In this document: positions 1 to 47,429 of the stretch, one piece after another
Numbering within the stretch: position 1 is the first letter of the stretch
How the letters are laid out: each line of letters opens with the position of its first letter
Origin: a virus
Taxonomy: Duplodnaviria > Caudoviricetes
DNA length: 64,000 bases
Strand: one strand, 5' to 3'
IMG/VR virus record: IMGVR_UViG_3300021256_000002
Span: 128,001-192,000 of that record
The notes under the pieces: generated by a model
What the model was told of the DNA's origin: nothing
The model's input: only the letters and a program-made list of their open reading frames with translations
Database searches by the model: none
Translations under genes and position numbers: made by a program

Positions 1-77
1 TTGGCAATTGGAACTTATGGACATTTACACCCAAAGCACGCACAGATACAGATTCTAATATTTATTTCTGGAATATT

Positions 78-1850
78 ATGCAAGGATTCCTTAACGAATG
101 TAATATTAGATTAGGTAACAGATCGTTCAAAATTGAATCGGATGGTGATTGGGACGATGGAGCTATTGGCTTAGTTGATAGAACAGTTACCACTGAATCA
201 TATGAACAGACTATGGAAAAAACTGTTACTTATGGAGAAGAACTTGCTCCTAAGAACATGAACCATTTCAAGATAAGAGAAGATCGAAAAGATATGACTC
301 GTGGATATATGGACCCTGAAGTAATTTATAATCCTCCAAAGAATTTCAAGAATCTTGATCAGATATCTGGACTTGAATTGCAGACCTTCAAAGGGTTCAG
401 AAAGCTTGATGATGATATCAAGATGATTTTCCATTCAGGAAGTGATTATAACTGTATTGGATACATTCGCTGTCCTGAAACAGGTATTCAGCTGACAAAG
501 AGATGGATGCCTGAAGCATCCGGTCGTATTGAAAGATATGATTACTACATCAAAGACTCGAAAGGTCATGGTGGTAAATTCGAACTTTGGTTTAATCCTG
601 ATAGACATTATGCATCTGAAGCTGCTCTTGTATTGGAAGCAAGTGCGCATGGTGAAGAAATTTCTATGCAGGATGTAAAACGAAAGATTAGGTTTGTTGA
701 AGGTGATAAGGGTACAATGAATTCGGTATATGTAATGAATGGAAAGCAATATCGAGTTCGTGTAGAAACTCTTGTTGTGAGAAATCTTCATGGTGAACCT
801 CATATCTTCTTCCAGAAGAAAGACAAACCTTCTTCATATGGTCAGATGTATAAACTCCCAGGTGGGTCAGTTGAACCTAATAAGGATTGGGCTACTCAAG
901 CATCTGCTGAATGTAATGAAGAGATACTTACTAAGATAAAGAATATTCGATATACTGGAGTAAGTTATATCAAAGAGTATCCTCCAGGTAAAACTCCATC
1001 TTGGCAGAGAGCAAGTGTTCTCTATCAGAAAGGGGTAGATTATACTGGAGCTATTACCTTTGTATTCGTTGCTGAGTATGATGGTCCATATAAAAAATAC
1101 GTACATGCTATTGACAGAGACAGTCTTGCAAAGGAAGGTAAATGGTATCCAGTAAAAGATTTCAATCATCTCTGTAATGATGAGCACAAAGGAATCATCT
1201 ACGGAGTAAAGCTGGTATCTGATGAACCTTCTGCAGATGCAATGACTGAAGGTTTTCAACCAATAGAGGAGGTATCTGTTGTGAAGAAGATAGTTGGTAA
1301 AGTTTTCGGGAAAGATAAGCAAGCTACCAAAGAACGTCAGATGAGTGCTGAACGATTGAAGCGTCGTAAAGATGTAGTCAATCATACCTTCGATTTCGTT
1401 GGTAAGTTCCTAGCTAAAACGCTCAAGAATCCTGAATTTGCTAGATGCTTTACGAAAGATGAGAGTATGCTTCGTAAATGGGAACAAGGCGGAGGCAAAT
1501 ACACCACCGTCCTGTATTGGGATAAGAAGAGATTCAAAGGTAGTGACGAGGAATGGAATAAATACTATAAAGCATTTAGACGAGAAGTATCCATGCATCG
1601 TACAGATGTAAAAGGGTTTTCAATTGGTTGTGCAAGAGGTTCAAACTCTTCTAACGGTTTGATTCAATTGACTGACCATAGTAAGTTATGGAGACCTTTG
1701 AATGAGGTATTTGCAACCAAGGAGGATTATTCTTTGATGGGTTCGTTACCAAAAAAGAAAGTCCATCGCAAGGTTGTATCTCGTCATGCGATGAATGGTA
1801 AGAATAAGGTTAAAATCGTTAGTCAGGAGCAGTATCCTGATTGGTTCTAA
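78..1850 (+). CDS. NUDIX-domain multidomain protein, possibly virion-packaged
   Basis: 590 aa ORF; degenerate Nudix box KLPGGSVEPNKDWATQASAECNEEI; hydrophobic-X-E motifs (VLEAS, MTEG, PIEE) between domains. Confidence 0.6.
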   Translation: MQGFLNECNIRLGNRSFKIESDGDWDDGAIGLVDRTVTTESYEQTMEKTVTYGEELAPKNMNHFKIREDRKDMTRGYMDPEVIYNPPKNFKNLDQISGLELQTFKGFRKLDDDIKMIFHSGSDYNCIGYIRCPETGIQLTKRWMPEASGRIERYDYYIKDSKGHGGKFELWFNPDRHYASEAALVLEASAHGEEISMQDVKRKIRFVEGDKGTMNSVYVMNGKQYRVRVETLVVRNLHGEPHIFFQKKDKPSSYGQMYKLPGGSVEPNKDWATQASAECNEEILTKIKNIRYTGVSYIKEYPPGKTPSWQRASVLYQKGVDYTGAITFVFVAEYDGPYKKYVHAIDRDSLAKEGKWYPVKDFNHLCNDEHKGIIYGVKLVSDEPSADAMTEGFQPIEEVSVVKKIVGKVFGKDKQATKERQMSAERLKRRKDVVNHTFDFVGKFLAKTLKNPEFARCFTKDESMLRKWEQGGGKYTTVLYWDKKRFKGSDEEWNKYYKAFRREVSMHRTDVKGFSIGCARGSNSSNGLIQLTDHSKLWRPLNEVFATKEDYSLMGSLPKKKVHRKVVSRHAMNGKNKVKIVSQEQYPDWF

Positions 1851-1855
1851 GAAAA

Positions 1856-1889
1856 AGAAGAAAGAGTACCTAACAGTACTCTTTCTTCT
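1856..1889 (+). terminator. Intrinsic terminator
   Basis: agaagaaagagtac/gtactctttcttct inverted repeat right after the stop codon. Confidence 0.7.
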
Positions 1890-1916: not shown

Positions 1917-1928
1917 CACATCTAACTA
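1917..1928 (+). promoter_or_regulatory. Late-type promoter CACA-N6-TA
   Basis: caca-tctaac-ta upstream of the SD of 1945; same spacing as the motif before structural genes. Confidence 0.5.
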
Positions 1929-1944
1929 AATTTTAGGAGGTGAT

Positions 1945-2931
1945 TTGATGCACCCTTTAGATGCAAAATCATATTCAGATTTATTCACTAAGGATAATCT
2001 GAAAGCCGATTATATTGAATTGATGAAAACATATCATCCTGATAGATATAAAGGTAGTGATGCAAGCAAAATTTGTGCTAAGATCAATGCGCTATACGAA
2101 GAGGCTAAAGCACATGTTAATGATGATACGTGGGGCGATGAATCCAATGTCATTTATATAACACGTAAAAATGATATAAAAATGCGTGTTAAATATCTAT
2201 ATCAGGGGATCAATGAAACCGGAGAATACTACATAGGTAATACCATAGTAATATTCTCCTTCACTAAAAAGAAATTTTTTGATAATTATTTGTCATCTGT
2301 AAAGAAAATAAAGTACGCCGATGATAAGATTAAAAATTATTTTAAGCGTTTTATGCCGGAAATAATTGATAGCTTTACATCGGTAGATGATAAATACTAT
2401 ATCGTTGTTAAGAAAACAGCCGACGTATATCCACTCTGGTTGGTTAAGGATATCTTTAAACAGAAAGAGCATGCTGCTTGGTTATCAACACGATTGTTTA
2501 ATCTTTCAGCATTTTTATCAACGAGTGGTATCGTGCATAATGGTATATCCATTAGCAATATATTTGTATCATTGGAATTTCATGGAGCTTCTCTCTTAGG
2601 TGGATGGCAGTACGCTACATCAGAGGGTAGCAAAATGATTGGAACCAATAAAGAAGTATATTCGGTAATGTCGCCAAGTACTAAAGCAAATAAGCTTGCT
2701 AATTATAATACAGATACGATGGCTATAAAACACATTATATGCAGATTACTTGGTGGTAAAACATATCGAGACTTTGTAAACATCGTTGGTGAGGTATGGG
2801 CTGACTTTCTTATGCAGAGTGAAGACCAACCAATCGACGTTGTTCATAAATGGGAAGATGTACGCGATAAATCATTTAAAGAGCACAGATTTGTCAAAGT
2901 AGATATTCCCGAAAATGTTTATACAAAATAG
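1945..2931 (+). CDS. J-domain (HPD) fused to protein-kinase-like pseudokinase domain
   Basis: N-terminal YIELMKTYHPD...KINALYEEA J-domain; kinase-like GIVHNGISISNIFV and LLGGW where HRD/DFG aspartates are absent. Confidence 0.7.
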   Translation: MMHPLDAKSYSDLFTKDNLKADYIELMKTYHPDRYKGSDASKICAKINALYEEAKAHVNDDTWGDESNVIYITRKNDIKMRVKYLYQGINETGEYYIGNTIVIFSFTKKKFFDNYLSSVKKIKYADDKIKNYFKRFMPEIIDSFTSVDDKYYIVVKKTADVYPLWLVKDIFKQKEHAAWLSTRLFNLSAFLSTSGIVHNGISISNIFVSLEFHGASLLGGWQYATSEGSKMIGTNKEVYSVMSPSTKANKLANYNTDTMAIKHIICRLLGGKTYRDFVNIVGEVWADFLMQSEDQPIDVVHKWEDVRDKSFKEHRFVKVDIPENVYTK

Positions 2932-2943
2932 GAGGTAATTATT

Positions 2944-3891
2944 ATGGGCTGTGGTTCTTGGACATCATCATCGTGGGATTCTTACAAAAAATCGAAGAGC
3001 ATTGACGATAGGTCAACTGTAAGTTCGATCTATCACTCTTCTGAGTGTAAAGACACGATGAATCCGAAGGGAGTAAACGTAAGAGAATCACGGGACTCGG
3101 ATGAACATCCGAATTCCAATGCAATTATCCTCGGGCTTGATGTTACTGGCTCGATGGGATCGACCGCAGAAACTATCGCAAAAGGTGGTCTGAATGATAT
3201 CATTACCGGAATATACGATAAGGATATCTTGGAAGACCCGCAGATAATGGTCGCTGCTATTGGCGATACGTATTATGATGAAGCACCTTTGCAGGTTGGT
3301 CAGTTTGAATCTGACATCCGTGCAGCTGAAAATCTGACGGATATTTGGTTTGAAGCCGGCGGCGGCGGAAATGGTGGAGAGTCATATTTGGCTCTTTGGT
3401 ATTTCGCGGCACGCCATACAAGCATTGACTGCTTCGAAAAGCGTGGCAAGAAAGGTGTTATCTTCACAATTGGAGATGAACCTTGCTGCGCAAGATTGCC
3501 GAAAGACCATATCGAAAAGTTTTTTGGTGATAAAGTACAGGCGGATATCAAAGCAGAAGATATTCTTGCTGAGGTATCAAAAATGTATGACGTGTATCAT
3601 ATTGGATTACGTGAATACGGATTCAATAAAGACGGGTATGGATTCTATCATGATGCAGAAAGTTTTTGGCCTGATCTTTTAGGCGAACGGGCTATGCTGA
3701 TTAAGGGCGAAAAAGATGAAAATCTTGATCGTATCCCTGCTATCATCAACGCAACGCTGGAATTGCGTATGGGACGTAAGTTAGAAGACGTTACCAAAGA
3801 CATGGATTCCTCCACTGCATTGGTTGTAAGAAATGCAGTTGGTGGGCTTAGCGCCGAAAAAGTTGGAAGTGGAGAGTTAGTGGAGTTTTAA
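2944..3891 (+). CDS. von Willebrand factor A domain protein
   Basis: MIDAS-type ILGLDVTGSMG, GGGGNGGESY and FTIGDE motifs. Confidence 0.85.
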   Translation: MGCGSWTSSSWDSYKKSKSIDDRSTVSSIYHSSECKDTMNPKGVNVRESRDSDEHPNSNAIILGLDVTGSMGSTAETIAKGGLNDIITGIYDKDILEDPQIMVAAIGDTYYDEAPLQVGQFESDIRAAENLTDIWFEAGGGGNGGESYLALWYFAARHTSIDCFEKRGKKGVIFTIGDEPCCARLPKDHIEKFFGDKVQADIKAEDILAEVSKMYDVYHIGLREYGFNKDGYGFYHDAESFWPDLLGERAMLIKGEKDENLDRIPAIINATLELRMGRKLEDVTKDMDSSTALVVRNAVGGLSAEKVGSGELVEF

Positions 3892-3893
3892 TC

Positions 3894-5075
3894 ATGAATG
3901 ATACACTTAGACCGATCCAAGTCGTCATCGGAGCAAATTACGGTGACGAAGGAAAAGGCCAGACGGTGTATGATATTGCTAAGAAGTTTAGAGCCGAGGG
4001 TTTTAAGAACGATGAAATCCTCGGTATAAAGTATAATGGCGGAGCCCAAGCAGGTCATACTGCAAAAGGCTTCGTTCATCATACTCTTTCTTCTGGTGGT
4101 ACACCGACTTATCTGGCAAGAGATTTTATATTCAATCCGGTGGCGTTAAATCGAGAATGTGTTGATTATATGGTCAAACGGATGATGCCGCCTGAAAAAG
4201 TATACGTTGATCCGAAGTGCCGTGTTACAACACCAGTCGATATATTGATGAATCAAATCATCGAGACCGTACGCAATAAAGATCGGCATGGGTCATGTGG
4301 AATGGGTATACATGCAACAATTGTGCGTAGTAAAACCCTTCCTCTTTTTGCAATAGATCTCATTAGCGATTCATTTAATCGAAGCATGTTCGCAAAAGCA
4401 ATATCAATTCATTTTGATGGGTTCTGCCAAGCAATTAGAGATATTCCTGAGCAATTTCAGGATATTGATATAGAATCTGTAATGAACGATTTCTATAAAG
4501 AGGCAGATCGTTGCTTAAAAGAATATGCATCCATTAGATCCCAAAAAGAAGTAGTTCCATTCGCAAGTAGATTTATCTTTGAAGGAAGCCAAGGATTACT
4601 TCTTGATATGGATAATAAAGATAATTATCCGCACGTAACTCCATCTCATCCCGGATCCCAATATGTGATTAAGTTAATACGCACTTACTTTACTCCCTTT
4701 AAAGAATGGGGTAATATCGGTGAATCTATAACGGTGAATTATGTACTGCGTACATTTGTCACACGACATGGAGCAGGCCCTCTCCCTCATGAAGAGGATA
4801 TCAAATATATTCTTGGTAAAAATGGGGAAGGTGACAGTACAAACATCCCTAATGAATGGCAAGGAACTATGCGATATGCAAAATACCCAGAAGATTATGG
4901 CTTGTCTCAGATAAACCATGATAGACAACTCTGGTATGACGCATGGATACATCCGGAATTTAAGCCAATTATTACATGGCAAGATGTTCGTCCTACGATT
5001 GCATCAGTATCTGGGGATCTGTCAATCGATGACTATATTAATACATTCATTTCATCGTTCACTCCATTCTCTTGA
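3894..5075 (+). CDS. Adenylosuccinate synthetase (PurA)-fold protein, divergent
   Basis: GANYGDEGKG, NGGAQAGHT, FEGSQGLLLD, YPHVTPS, TRHGAGPLP motifs; aspartate-binding loop and TKLD motif altered. Confidence 0.85.
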   Translation: MNDTLRPIQVVIGANYGDEGKGQTVYDIAKKFRAEGFKNDEILGIKYNGGAQAGHTAKGFVHHTLSSGGTPTYLARDFIFNPVALNRECVDYMVKRMMPPEKVYVDPKCRVTTPVDILMNQIIETVRNKDRHGSCGMGIHATIVRSKTLPLFAIDLISDSFNRSMFAKAISIHFDGFCQAIRDIPEQFQDIDIESVMNDFYKEADRCLKEYASIRSQKEVVPFASRFIFEGSQGLLLDMDNKDNYPHVTPSHPGSQYVIKLIRTYFTPFKEWGNIGESITVNYVLRTFVTRHGAGPLPHEEDIKYILGKNGEGDSTNIPNEWQGTMRYAKYPEDYGLSQINHDRQLWYDAWIHPEFKPIITWQDVRPTIASVSGDLSIDDYINTFISSFTPFS

Positions 5076-5080
5076 TACTG

Positions 5081-5120
5081 AAAATAACAGAGCGTGAATA
5101 AAATCATGCTCTGTTATTTT
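5081..5120 (+). terminator. Intrinsic terminator closing the J/vWA/PurA-like operon
   Basis: aaaataacagagc...gctctgttatttt inverted repeat. Confidence 0.7.
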
Positions 5121-5163
5121 CTATTTATGCGTTTATATATTAATAAATAAAGGAGGAATAAAA

Positions 5164-5665: not shown

Positions 5666-6430
5666 ATGAAAAAGAAAGTTGATGTACATTTTTATGGTAC
5701 TGGCAATGCGTTTAGTACCAGACCGAACACAAGTTTTGGATTCGAATTGTGTACTAATTTAAAGACTATCTTTATCTTTGAAGTTCCTATGAGTACGACT
5801 AAACAGATTATTGATCAAGGGCGCTCAATACATGGCAACTTTGATAATGATAGTATTGCTTCTATCGTTATTTGCATATCGCATCTGCATGAAGATCATG
5901 CTGGTGGGTTATCGACTCTACTAGCATGGCTTAAATATGCTAAGAAGATACCTTTGGAAGATAAGGTTACCATCATTTGCCCAAATATAGATGATATGGA
6001 AACCTATTTGGACTTAACTTTACATTTACCAAATGAACAAAATCCGGTGATTACAGAGCAGTATTATCGTACGCGCCATATGGATACTATGGTAGAAATT
6101 CAGCCAGAAGATGTTGTTCATTGTAAGGATATGAACTCGGTTGGGTTTGATGTGACGGTAACACATCCTGCTGAAAGCAATTCGACTACCCAGTTCAGAT
6201 TCTATTATACTGGCGATTGTATTGAGATGCCCGCTCATATAGTTTCCCAATTCAATAAGCATGATATCGATATTCTTATTAGTGAAATTTCTGAGTTCCC
6301 AATAGAGCCATGGAATGTTCATTGCTCATATGAGTTCTTTAAAAAGAATTTCAACCCAGATGATATTCGTAACCGAATAATATTTGTACATTACAATTTC
6401 GATTATAAGAAAGTATTAAACTTGAATTAA
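5666..6430 (+). CDS. Metallo-beta-lactamase-fold phosphodiesterase (RNase Z/Apyc1-like)
   Basis: GTGNAF, SHLHEDHAGG (HxHxDH), VVH, YTGD, VHC and FVHY metal-binding motifs; 254 aa. Confidence 0.8.
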   Translation: MKKKVDVHFYGTGNAFSTRPNTSFGFELCTNLKTIFIFEVPMSTTKQIIDQGRSIHGNFDNDSIASIVICISHLHEDHAGGLSTLLAWLKYAKKIPLEDKVTIICPNIDDMETYLDLTLHLPNEQNPVITEQYYRTRHMDTMVEIQPEDVVHCKDMNSVGFDVTVTHPAESNSTTQFRFYYTGDCIEMPAHIVSQFNKHDIDILISEISEFPIEPWNVHCSYEFFKKNFNPDDIRNRIIFVHYNFDYKKVLNLN

Positions 6431-45509: not shown

Positions 45510-47429
45510 TTACTTATTAGCATTCTTAGCTGCAACGCGCTTAACCTGAGATGCAATGTACTGATTAGCACTCATCAGAGTACCTACCAGAGAGATAGAA
45601 CCTTTAATGATTTCAATATCCGTTTTGATGGAATTGATAACATCACGGTTGTATTCTTCCGTTGTAAGGTCAAAGCACATTTCATCTTCAAGAGACTTGT
45701 TGATGACTGACTTAACATAATCAATCGTCGTATCCGGGTTCTTATTCTTATGAATCGTCAGGATTACTCGACAGAAAGTCTCCCAAAGAGCATTGCTAAT
45801 CTTCTTCTCAAACGGGTCTTCCAGCTTCGGCTGGATTTCTTTGAGAGCTTTGAAGATAGCCAGGTTATTACCGTAGTAATATCCATGCTTAACTGCAGAA
45901 GAGCAAGCCTTGATAGCGTCGTCAACCGAATCATTCTGCATAGAACGTTCAAGTTCAGACTTACCACCAATCTTGATAGTTGCAGACTTACAGGACAGAT
46001 GCTGGATACGTTCAAGAGCATACATGTACTCTTTATGAACATAACGAGAGTTCTCTACCTGAGCATACTCCTTATTCAGCATATCCTGAGCATCATGGAG
46101 ATGAACATCCAGCATAGGTTGGTCTTTGTTGCTGAAACCACTGAACTCGATTTCTTTCATACCAAGTGTAATGTTATCGCAACGACCAATGAAGCCCATG
46201 AACATCTCCATAGCTTCTTTGTAGATTTCTTCAGGCTGTTTTTCCAGTTCAATAGCCTTAATTTTGTCGAATTCTTCAGGGCTAAGACCTTTGGAAATAG
46301 CTTCCTGCTTAGCGCGTTCAACACGCATCTCTTCAGACTTCTGCTGACGAAGAGCATTCATGTAAGAATTCACAGCATTCATGAATTCTTCAGCCGTAAC
46401 AAGGTTGATGATAGTCGAACCAAGATACGGAGTAAGGTCATCGTAGATGTAATGGTCTACTGGACGAATGAACGGTGCTTTTGCAAATACCAGTGGGTAC
46501 GGCGGAGCACCAGCCTGACCTTTCTGTTTGTAGAATTCACGGAATTTGATTACATCGGCACGAATGCGGTCACCGATGAAGTTATCGTAGTATGGAGCGA
46601 TGACAACCACACGGCTCTGGTCATCAATCGTATTGAGGAATTGCATGAACATCTGAATCATTTGCCAATGCTTATCTTCGAGAGTGAAGTCGAAGAGAAG
46701 AATGATCGGATGTTCGATAACAGCCGTATTGTTATCGGTATTCACATAAGTCTTGTCAAGGAACGAACCACGAATGTGATACGTATCATCCTTAATCTGA
46801 ATACCGGATTCGGTTGTTTCGGAGAACTCTTTGCCGATATGGACATCTTTACCGCATTTCTCATAGATATCGATGATGTGTTTGGTATATTCTTCATCAC
46901 CATTAGTTGCGATATAAGATACTTTCTTGACGATATCAAGATAGTTATCGTCAGTTACCGGTATTTTCAAGGCTTCGATTTCCATGATAAGCTTATCAAT
47001 AAAGCCCTGAGTTTTGCTAACGAAGTCTTTCGGACGGAGTTCTTTAGACAACCCGCTGGAATCAATGATGTCCATGAAGTTCTTAGCTGCCATAATGGTA
47101 GTTGTAGAACCGTCACCGACTTTCATGACCATCTGATGACTCATCGTCTGAATCAAATCCATTACAGCATTTGCCGACGGTTCATCAAAATGAATGTGGC
47201 TCAGTGCAGTATAACCATCTTTGGTCATATGATATTCACCGAGGCGTTCAATGATTGTACCTGAACCATACGGGCCAGCTGTACGACTAAGAGCGTTATA
47301 AATCTTATTGAAAATTTGGAGCATAAGGGTCTTAAACTGATGCTCTTCGATAACGTTCCAAGGATGTTCATCCGGAACGTTTCTTTTCATATTCAGTTCT
47401 AATACACCTGTAGTGTTACTCATGATCAT
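45510..47429 (-). CDS. GroEL-like phage chaperonin
   Basis: RTAGPYG, TKDGYT, VGDGSTTT (GDGTTT), DDAIKA motifs; late motif gaca-gtactc-ta at 47456-47467 (minus). Confidence 0.92.
   Translation of the reverse strand: MIMSNTTGVLELNMKRNVPDEHPWNVIEEHQFKTLMLQIFNKIYNALSRTAGPYGSGTIIERLGEYHMTKDGYTALSHIHFDEPSANAVMDLIQTMSHQMVMKVGDGSTTTIMAAKNFMDIIDSSGLSKELRPKDFVSKTQGFIDKLIMEIEALKIPVTDDNYLDIVKKVSYIATNGDEEYTKHIIDIYEKCGKDVHIGKEFSETTESGIQIKDDTYHIRGSFLDKTYVNTDNNTAVIEHPIILLFDFTLEDKHWQMIQMFMQFLNTIDDQSRVVVIAPYYDNFIGDRIRADVIKFREFYKQKGQAGAPPYPLVFAKAPFIRPVDHYIYDDLTPYLGSTIINLVTAEEFMNAVNSYMNALRQQKSEEMRVERAKQEAISKGLSPEEFDKIKAIELEKQPEEIYKEAMEMFMGFIGRCDNITLGMKEIEFSGFSNKDQPMLDVHLHDAQDMLNKEYAQVENSRYVHKEYMYALERIQHLSCKSATIKIGGKSELERSMQNDSVDDAIKACSSAVKHGYYYGNNLAIFKALKEIQPKLEDPFEKKISNALWETFCRVILTIHKNKNPDTTIDYVKSVINKSLEDEMCFDLTTEEYNRDVINSIKTDIEIIKGSISLVGTLMSANQYIASQVKRVAAKNANK

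Follow-up and report, generated by a model that had tools for sequence, protein, structure and literature searches.

A three-gene module of phages and bacteria with a J-domain pseudokinase, a vWA protein and a PurA-superfamily ligase predicted to have lost its aspartate site

A 64,000-nucleotide stretch of phage DNA (positions 128,001 to 192,000 of IMG/VR record IMGVR_UViG_3300021256_000002; hereafter the window) carries near its start three closely spaced genes. They encode a J-domain protein with a dead kinase domain (gene 1), a von Willebrand factor A (vWA) protein (gene 2) and a relative of adenylosuccinate synthetase, PurA (gene 3). The three genes belong to a module found in both phages and bacteria. 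The core of this module is the vWA gene together with the gene for the PurA-superfamily ligase, and this core is usually preceded by a gene for a pseudokinase adaptor. Judged from alignments, the ligase forms a new branch within the PurA superfamily. Its divergence is similar in nature to the re-tooling of PurA into PurZ, except that here the aspartate site has apparently been lost. We propose, with a probability of about 0.5, that the module encodes a guanosine triphosphate (GTP)-dependent nucleotide ligase that would use a nucleophile other than aspartate, acting with a vWA partner, a J-domain that would recruit DnaK, and a dead kinase domain that would serve as a scaffold or sensor.

The membership of gene 3 in the PurA superfamily is supported by a match to Pfam family PF00709 (3.5e-26, residues 10-312) and by sequence matches in the PDB, all of which are PurA chains (1e-12 or weaker) with no PurZ structure among them. 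An earlier note on this DNA, made from the sequence alone, had called the protein a PurA-fold ligase, and these matches bear it out. Several labels point the same way. The PHROG family of gene 3 is labeled PurZ-type, and the ESM Atlas returned only clusters named "putative adenylosuccinate synthase". However, gene 3 falls far short of the cut-offs of the NCBIfam equivalogs for PurA (75.3 bits against 402 for NF002223, and 60.8 bits against 395.6 for TIGR00184) and of the cut-off for PurZ (25.6 bits against 300 for NF038379).

We aligned 142 distinct module-linked homologs of gene 3 with Escherichia coli PurA as the reference. For the E. coli enzyme, we take the residue roles from the literature on structure 1ADE and assume that they are as follows: G12-G17 is the P-loop, Asp13 is catalytic, H41 is the catalytic acid, E221 and Q224 contact the nucleotide, T239 contacts the phosphate of inosine monophosphate (IMP), and D333 and S414 read the guanine. 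We likewise take Asn38, Thr129, Thr239 and, from the other subunit, Arg143 to be the contacts of the IMP 5'-phosphate, and Thr300, Thr301, Arg303 and Arg305 to be in the loop that holds L-aspartate.

The residues for activation of the nucleotide are conserved in the homologs. P-loop residues G12, D13, G15, K16 and G17 are kept in 140 of the 142 sequences and E14 in 138; in the window protein the loop is G17-D18-E19-G20-K21-G22 (GDEGKG) and the catalytic His is H55. H41 is present in 141 of the 142, E221 and Q224 in every one, and T239 in 139. The segment T271-R272-x-G274 is also kept (T in 141, R in 137 and G in all 142). The position of D333 has D in 106 sequences and N in 34, and S414 is mostly kept. 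In two homologs (P0129 and P0130, one of them from Paenibacillus), an intein interrupts the protein at one and the same position, immediately behind the catalytic His (GGAQAGH/C..., with the slash at the insertion). An intein in such a place typically points to a site under strong constraint.

Other parts of the active site are different. N38 is replaced by Q in 139 of the homologs, T128 by S in 141, T129 by C in 128 and V273 by H in all 142, and R143 is not conserved. Of the contacts to the IMP 5'-phosphate, only Thr239 is retained. The aspartate loop, G298-A-T300-T301-G-R303-R-R305-R in E. coli, has become N-x-[W/F/Y]-Q-G-x-hydrophobic-(gap)-R, with Q in place of T301 and a gap at R305 throughout; at Thr300, Thr301, Arg303 and Arg305 the window protein has W, Q, T and the gap. 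Because the P-loop, the catalytic His and the residues that read guanine are kept and the aspartate loop is rebuilt, we infer that the phosphotransfer machinery is intact and that the nucleophile pocket is a different one.

Bacteria that carry the module also have an ordinary PurA. In five of five module-bearing bacterial genomes there is a true purA elsewhere, scoring 448-599 bits, compared with 48-141 bits for the copy in the module. The sub-cut-off scores, the rebuilt loop and the separate purA indicate that gene 3 is neither a housekeeping PurA nor a PurZ, in agreement with the earlier suggestion that it is not an enzyme of purine synthesis. Compared with PurA (EC 6.3.4.4; E. coli, 1ADE, 1KJX), gene 3 has the same fold, Pfam family and GDEGKG motif, and the equivalents of Asp13, His41, Gln224, Thr239, Asp333 and Ser414. 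In contrast, it has a rebuilt aspartate loop, other residues at the positions of Asn38, Thr129, Val273 and Arg143, and a shortened C-terminal domain (393 versus 432 amino acids in total). It also always travels with a vWA gene.

PurZ (NF038379) is likewise a phage-borne enzyme of the PurA superfamily with altered substrate use. Both PurA and PurZ use aspartate, and the lost aspartate loop thus argues against PurZ chemistry in gene 3. The partner genes differ as well. In phages with 2-aminoadenine (Z) genomes, the partners are a dATPase (DatZ, a dATP/dADP hydrolase), the MazG-like MazZ and the polymerase DpoZ, whereas the partners of gene 3 are the vWA protein and the pseudokinase.

Gene 2 matches no family in Pfam or NCBIfam. 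It matches PHROG 2971, to which PHROG assigns no function, and has more than 7,600 relatives in a large protein database. Its AlphaFold2 model (predicted local distance difference test score, pLDDT, 83.6) was matched, at a probability of 1.00, to integrin I-like domains, the A domains of von Willebrand factor and the vWA domains of Ku80, Sec23/24 and Rpn10. In an alignment of 26 sequences, D66-V-T68-G-S70 and T175-I-G-D178-E are invariant. Thr in place of the first Ser of the DxSxS motif is a known variant of the metal ion-dependent adhesion site (MIDAS). Because both motifs are invariant, we consider the MIDAS to be present at the motif level. Together, the model, its structural matches and the motifs confirm that gene 2 encodes a vWA fold with a predicted MIDAS metal site, as had been claimed.

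The two ends of gene 2 are also conserved across phyla. The N-terminus, which is nearly universal among the homologs, reads MGxGx[WFY] or MGxxRW, and the C-terminus is a hydrophobic-hydrophobic-x-Phe tail (Phe is the last residue in 89 of 147 sequences; LVEF in the window protein). These ends look like docking or reaction motifs. In the AlphaFold2 model, both segments are disordered. Some loci of the Oscillospiraceae, Ruminococcaceae and Lachnospiraceae type (L049, L066, L068, L073 and L074 in our numbering) have two tandem vWA paralogs between the pseudokinase and the ligase.

In gene 1, a J-domain and a protein-kinase fold are joined in one protein, as its structural model and the matches to that model show. 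The AlphaFold2 model, built with 30 homologs, has a pLDDT of 92.9 and places the HPD motif (H31-P32-D33, in MKTYHPDRY) between two helices, residues 16-30 and 40-57, in the arrangement of a J-domain. The best Foldseek match is a DnaJB1-PKA chimera, followed by PLK1, PAK1, YabT and the pseudokinases VRK3 and ROP2. Gene 1 also matches a PHROG family named "kinase" over most of its length; in NCBIfam, no family matches it. The bilobal kinase fold is present, and at least 90% of the sequences share a lysine of the beta3 type, K157. The catalytic Asp of HRD and the metal-binding Asp of DFG are both absent; the protein reads HNG at the first motif and GGW at the second. The sequence motifs, the model and the Foldseek matches therefore agree with the original description of this protein as an HPD J-domain joined to a kinase-like domain without either aspartate. 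HN...GGWW is the consensus of the family (83 of 117 distinct members). Thus, loss of the aspartates is a trait of the family and not decay in this phage.

The N-terminal part of the pseudokinase varies among family members. HPD is found in 81 of the 117, and in 30 (26%; e.g., L029, L052, L060 and L076) a CxxC...CxxC zinc ribbon takes the place of the J-domain. Since the zinc ribbon substitutes for the J-domain in about a quarter of the family, we suspect that the adaptor head is interchangeable.

A link to chaperones through the HPD J-domain is plausible. The complete 253-kb phage genome encodes no Hsp70 and no second J-domain protein, so any Hsp70 partner of gene 1 must be the DnaK of the host. 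A GroEL-like chaperonin is encoded at window positions 45510-47429 on the minus strand (PHROG 5725, 3.4e-70). With a GroEL-like chaperonin and no Hsp70, this phage brings one chaperone system and probably borrows another through gene 1. Other phage J-domain proteins are known; Rki of phage RB43, for example, binds DnaK. Like these proteins, that of gene 1 is encoded by a phage and has an HPD J-domain, through which it presumably contacts the DnaK of the host. In gene 1, however, the J-domain is fused to a pseudokinase, in a three-gene module that bacteria also carry.

The neighborhood check proposed in the earlier note was run, and homologs of the three genes are clearly co-conserved. For bacteria, one genome per species was scanned with the vWA alignment; there were matches in at least 587 species, and 80 loci were kept. 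For viruses, 80 of 410 viral-contig matches were kept and joined by five GenBank phage or viral-contig loci, giving 85. The order kinase-like, vWA, PurA-like on the same strand is found in 66 of the 80 bacterial loci, and vWA followed by PurA-like in nearly all of them. The full triad is present in the same order in 63 of the 85 viral loci. The bacterial loci come from Bacillota, Pseudomonadota, Cyanobacteriota/Melainabacteria, Acidobacteriota, Planctomycetota and Bdellovibrionota.

There are variations on this arrangement. Cluster C phages of Mycobacterium have the kinase gene, the vWA gene, a small open reading frame and then the PurA-like gene. Vibrio and Rhizobium phages have the vWA and PurA-like genes, with a gene for a Met/Gly-rich protein upstream instead of the pseudokinase. 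This protein, of about 240-300 amino acids, also occurs in three viral contigs that have no pseudokinase (its copies are at L001:3060-3773, L002:2756-3547, L132, L140 and L157), and one copy has an N-terminal zinc-ribbon match.

Phages and bacteria seem to have exchanged the module repeatedly. A FastTree phylogeny of the ligases, with E. coli PurA as the root, requires about 10 switches between viruses and bacteria, and the window protein pairs with that of a 504-kb viral contig inside a Lachnospiraceae/Clostridia clade. These switches and this placement suggest repeated exchange and, for this phage, a host among the Bacillota. Some copies are on plasmids. In the RefSeq entries for Allorhizobium ampelinum pAtS4e (L168) and Rhodococcus opacus pLPS8 (L169), the triad is named "hypothetical, hypothetical, adenylosuccinate synthetase", and the ligase entries carry a Gene Ontology term for purine nucleotide biosynthesis. 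We think that this name is probably a widely propagated mis-annotation. A literature search found no paper describing the module or its role.

The phage genome from which the window comes is complete, measures 253,296 bp and has direct terminal repeats. In addition to the chaperonin, it has genes for split multisubunit RNA-polymerase beta subunits, a major head protein, a terminase and a tail sheath. The features in and around the three-gene unit are listed in Table 1.

Table 1. Features of the window in and around the three-gene unit (positions are those of the window)
Feature	Position	Strand	Description
Upstream open reading frame	3-1850		at least 615 amino acids, runs off the start of the window; sub-threshold Nudix-like stretch
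Hairpin	1856..1889		palindromic, stem of 14-15 bp, just 3' of the stop of the upstream gene; scored terminator-like on both strands
Gene 1	1945-2931	+	J-domain (HPD) plus protein-kinase-fold pseudokinase; open reading frame of 328 amino acids
Gene 2	2944-3891	+	vWA fold with MIDAS motif; open reading frame of 315 amino acids
Gene 3	3894-5075	+	PurA-superfamily ligase; open reading frame of 393 amino acids
Terminator-like hairpin	5080-5121	+	18 pairs, 5 nucleotides 3' of the stop of gene 3
Metallo-beta-lactamase-fold protein	5666-6430		254 amino acids; Lactamase_B_2, 24.8 bits (cut-off 27); PHROG "metal-dependent hydrolase"

Translational coupling joins the three genes into a compact unit: the gaps between them are only 12 and 2 nucleotides, each open reading frame has its own Shine-Dalgarno sequence, and hairpins flank the unit. 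Gene 1 starts at a TTG (1945) or, more likely, at an ATG (1948), with AGGAGG 7-8 nucleotides upstream. The Shine-Dalgarno sequence of gene 2, TAGGAGG, overlaps the stop codon of gene 1, and that of gene 3, GGAG, is 9 nucleotides 5' of the start. The upstream hairpin probably delimits the transcription unit. Thus, the tight spacing of the genes and the terminator-like hairpin after them agree with the previous description. The late-type promoter that was also described was not recovered: no word recurs meaningfully within 1890-1944, and a scan for sigma-70 promoters gave scores at background level. Megablast of the triad region against a phage collection gave no match, and neither did a PADLOC search of the triad. 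Between the triad and the metallo-beta-lactamase-fold gene there is an open reading frame of 127 amino acids without a family match.

A NUDIX gene had been placed immediately upstream of gene 1. What we find there is a stretch that resembles Nudix but scores below threshold (19.5 bits; cut-off 21.1), within a larger protein whose gene is separated from the triad by the hairpin. The Nudix box is partly degenerate (AECNEE), and the PDB matches are weak and generic. The stretch has no profile match to Nudix regulators of the NrtR type and one weak pairwise match to them (E 3.5e-4). We therefore find no support for a functional link between the triad and this upstream stretch. Nor does the complete genome encode NAMPT, NMNAT, RNA ligase, RlaP, DUF2828 or an AAA_33 kinase. 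Because these companions are absent, the triad stands alone in this phage, with the DnaK of the host, and the description of the operon as self-contained is sound.

How might the module work? We postulate that the ligase would use GTP to phosphorylate an oxo group on a nucleotide of the purine type. A nucleophile other than free aspartate would then displace this phosphate. With such a nucleophile, the product would be something other than adenylosuccinate. The vWA protein would be the obligate partner of the ligase and could bind, through its MIDAS metal site, either the ligase or a target. The J-domain could bring host DnaK to assemble or remodel the complex, and the dead kinase domain may be a scaffold or a sensor of a ligand. 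The adaptor would be swappable, with the J-domain, the zinc ribbon or the Met-rich protein in this position. The neighbors of related modules suggest a role when NAD+/ADP-ribose or RNA is attacked during conflict between phage and host, and it is from these neighbors that we infer a function of the module in conflict or stress.

Our view of the vWA protein as an adaptor derives from comparison with pairs of MoxR AAA+ ATPases and vWA proteins (CbbQ-CbbO, NorQ-NorD and RavA-ViaA). In both, a vWA protein with a MIDAS is encoded beside a chaperone-linked component. Unlike those pairs, the module has no AAA+ ATPase; it has a J-domain (Hsp70) instead, and a nucleotide ligase in addition. No MoxR AAA+ ATPase gene is beside the vWA gene in the window, and in only one of the bacterial loci is there a MoxR gene downstream. 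A second comparison, an analogy with TerY-type vWA/kinase modules, had been drawn loosely in the earlier note. The TerY-P triad (TerY vWA, PP2C and Ser/Thr kinase) is also a compact operon in which a vWA gene is next to one for a kinase-fold protein. However, the module has a PurA-like enzyme in place of the phosphatase, and its kinase is catalytically dead throughout the family. Across the 165 loci, neither PP2C nor an active Ser/Thr kinase is a conserved neighbor, and there was no PADLOC or TerY match. We conclude that the analogy with TerY does not hold.

Several observations weigh against our proposal. Some concern the individual proteins. The match of gene 1 to the Pfam DnaJ family (PF00226) scores 20.0 bits, below the gathering threshold of 27.8; one of its bacterial homologs clears the threshold, at 35.9 bits. 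The changes in the ligase pocket are read from the alignment to E. coli PurA, and one invariant Arg (E. coli position 306) survives in the rebuilt loop, so that some binding of a carboxylate could occur. Others concern the module as a whole. Many of the viral loci stem from a few related lineages. Database entries in which the vWA and PurA-like proteins, or the kinase and vWA proteins, are fused were considered as proof of a complex and rejected. Their junctions keep an internal start Met and have linkers rich in Arg and Pro, and they look like artefacts of read-through or frameshift in GC-rich DNA that give no clean Rosetta-stone support. Finally, the companion genes sought in this phage are missing, and the NAD/ADP-ribose and RNA-repair genes near the module in other phages may reflect only the clustering of accessory genes.

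Among the alternatives, the one that survives best is that the module serves the economy of NAD+ and ADP-ribose, although we consider this unlikely. GTP would activate an oxygen of ADP-ribose or of a precursor of NAD, and this would be coupled to an amine (nicotinamide or ammonia). The vWA protein and pseudokinase would be regulators, and the module would rebuild NAD+ or adenylates after defenses of the NADase type. Much of the bacterial neighborhood is consistent with this. The commonest extra neighbor, found in 22 of the 80 loci and usually divergent and upstream, encodes a regulator of the NrtR type, in which Nudix is combined with an NrtR winged helix. Microbial PARG and NAMPT genes adjoin the triad in some Bacillota loci (Lachnospiraceae and Clostridium), and NUDIX genes flank it on the Allorhizobium and Rhodococcus plasmids. 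One Lachnospiraceae metagenome-assembled genome (L006:6375-9480) has the triad, then a microbial-type PARG gene, and then a gene for a 755-amino-acid fusion of HemN-like radical-SAM and Nudix-NrtR winged-helix parts. Among phages, Rhizobium phage TM30 has a gene like those for phosphoribosyltransferases and a cytidylyltransferase gene upstream of the module, and a Vibrio phage has a NADAR gene near the module.

Operons with this layout may already have been noticed. NrtR-controlled divergons, "nrtR<#>nrtX-nrtY", were described without an assigned function in Streptomyces, Kineococcus, Frankia, Proteus mirabilis and Hahella chejuensis (Rodionov et al. 2008, PMC2330246). Their divergent layout is the same as that of the NrtR-like gene and the triad in the bacterial loci, and these nrtX-nrtY genes may be copies of the module. 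As candidates only, they would add to the case for NAD+. On the other side, this phage has the module without NAMPT or NMNAT and with only a generic, sub-threshold Nudix stretch upstream. In addition, the kept Asp13, Gln224 and Thr239 of the ligase suit a 6-oxopurine mononucleotide better than ADP-ribose, and a salvage enzyme has no obvious need of a vWA partner and a J-domain pseudokinase.

A somewhat less likely alternative is that the module modifies proteins. The MIDAS would capture a target, DnaK would remodel it, and the ligase would join a nucleotide to an amine of a protein, either the target or the vWA protein itself. The replacement of the aspartate pocket by aromatic and hydrophobic residues would fit such a reaction, as would a vWA protein that is an obligate neighbor and has a conserved MGxG N-terminus and hydrophobic-x-Phe tail. 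The vWA adaptors of MoxR-vWA systems do bind client proteins. However, the conserved ends of the vWA protein could equally well be docking motifs, and we know of no enzyme of the PurA family that takes a protein nucleophile. A specific form of this idea, in which the ligase would join a GTP-activated purine nucleotide to, for example, the N-terminal Gly of the vWA protein (from the invariant MG) or a target captured by the vWA protein and remodeled by DnaK, is a long shot. If it were true, the module would make a new protein modification common to large phages and bacteria, and in bacteria the switch would be a sensor of the ADP-ribose type.

It is also improbable, if a shade less so than that specific form, that the module is an accessory to RNA repair. 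Together with RNA ligase, RlaP, polynucleotide kinase and Thg1, it would restore tRNA or other RNA that has been damaged, and it might do so by supplying or converting a purine nucleotide at the damaged end. Recurrent neighbors in phages include RNA ligase, RlaP, PNK-HD, a TROVE-like DUF2828-vWA protein, Thg1, PhoH-PIN, a calcineurin-like phosphoesterase and an ATP-dependent ligase. Polynucleotide kinase is encoded upstream of the module in Mycobacterium phage Pleione, and the Vibrio phage with the NADAR gene also has a TROVE gene nearby. With phage lineages delimited at 60% identity of the ligase, 16 of the 42 have at least one of these neighbors no more than 8 kb away, in a raw count. Because the accessory genes of large phages cluster anyway, we treat this context as a lead only. 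Moreover, none of these genes is in the complete genome of this phage, and the context is not seen around the bacterial copies.

Least probable is an ordinary purine gene, either a phage PurA that boosts synthesis of AMP or a PurZ for Z DNA, since the PF00709 match, the PHROG label and the RefSeq names that favor it are set against scores far below both cut-offs, the absence of PurZ from the PDB matches, the loss of Thr300, Thr301, Arg303 and Arg305, and a separate true purA in bacterial carriers.

We therefore favor a GTP-dependent ligase with a nucleophile other than aspartate and its adaptors, and we note that the "purine biosynthesis" label on the ligase is almost certainly wrong. The module is common, with thousands of vWA homologs and with matches in hundreds of viral contigs and hundreds of bacterial species, and it moves between phages and bacteria. 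Its ligase is predicted to keep the GTP-driven activation chemistry of PurA and to have a new pocket for the nucleophile. In PurZ, a similar re-tooling of PurA gave a whole new nucleotide pathway. Since this phage has the module without companions for NAD salvage or RNA repair, it is a clean test case. Once the product of the ligase is known, it would provide a function for thousands of genes. A new nucleotide could also come to light, or a new way in which Hsp70 and vWA adaptors are employed in the conflict between phages and their hosts.

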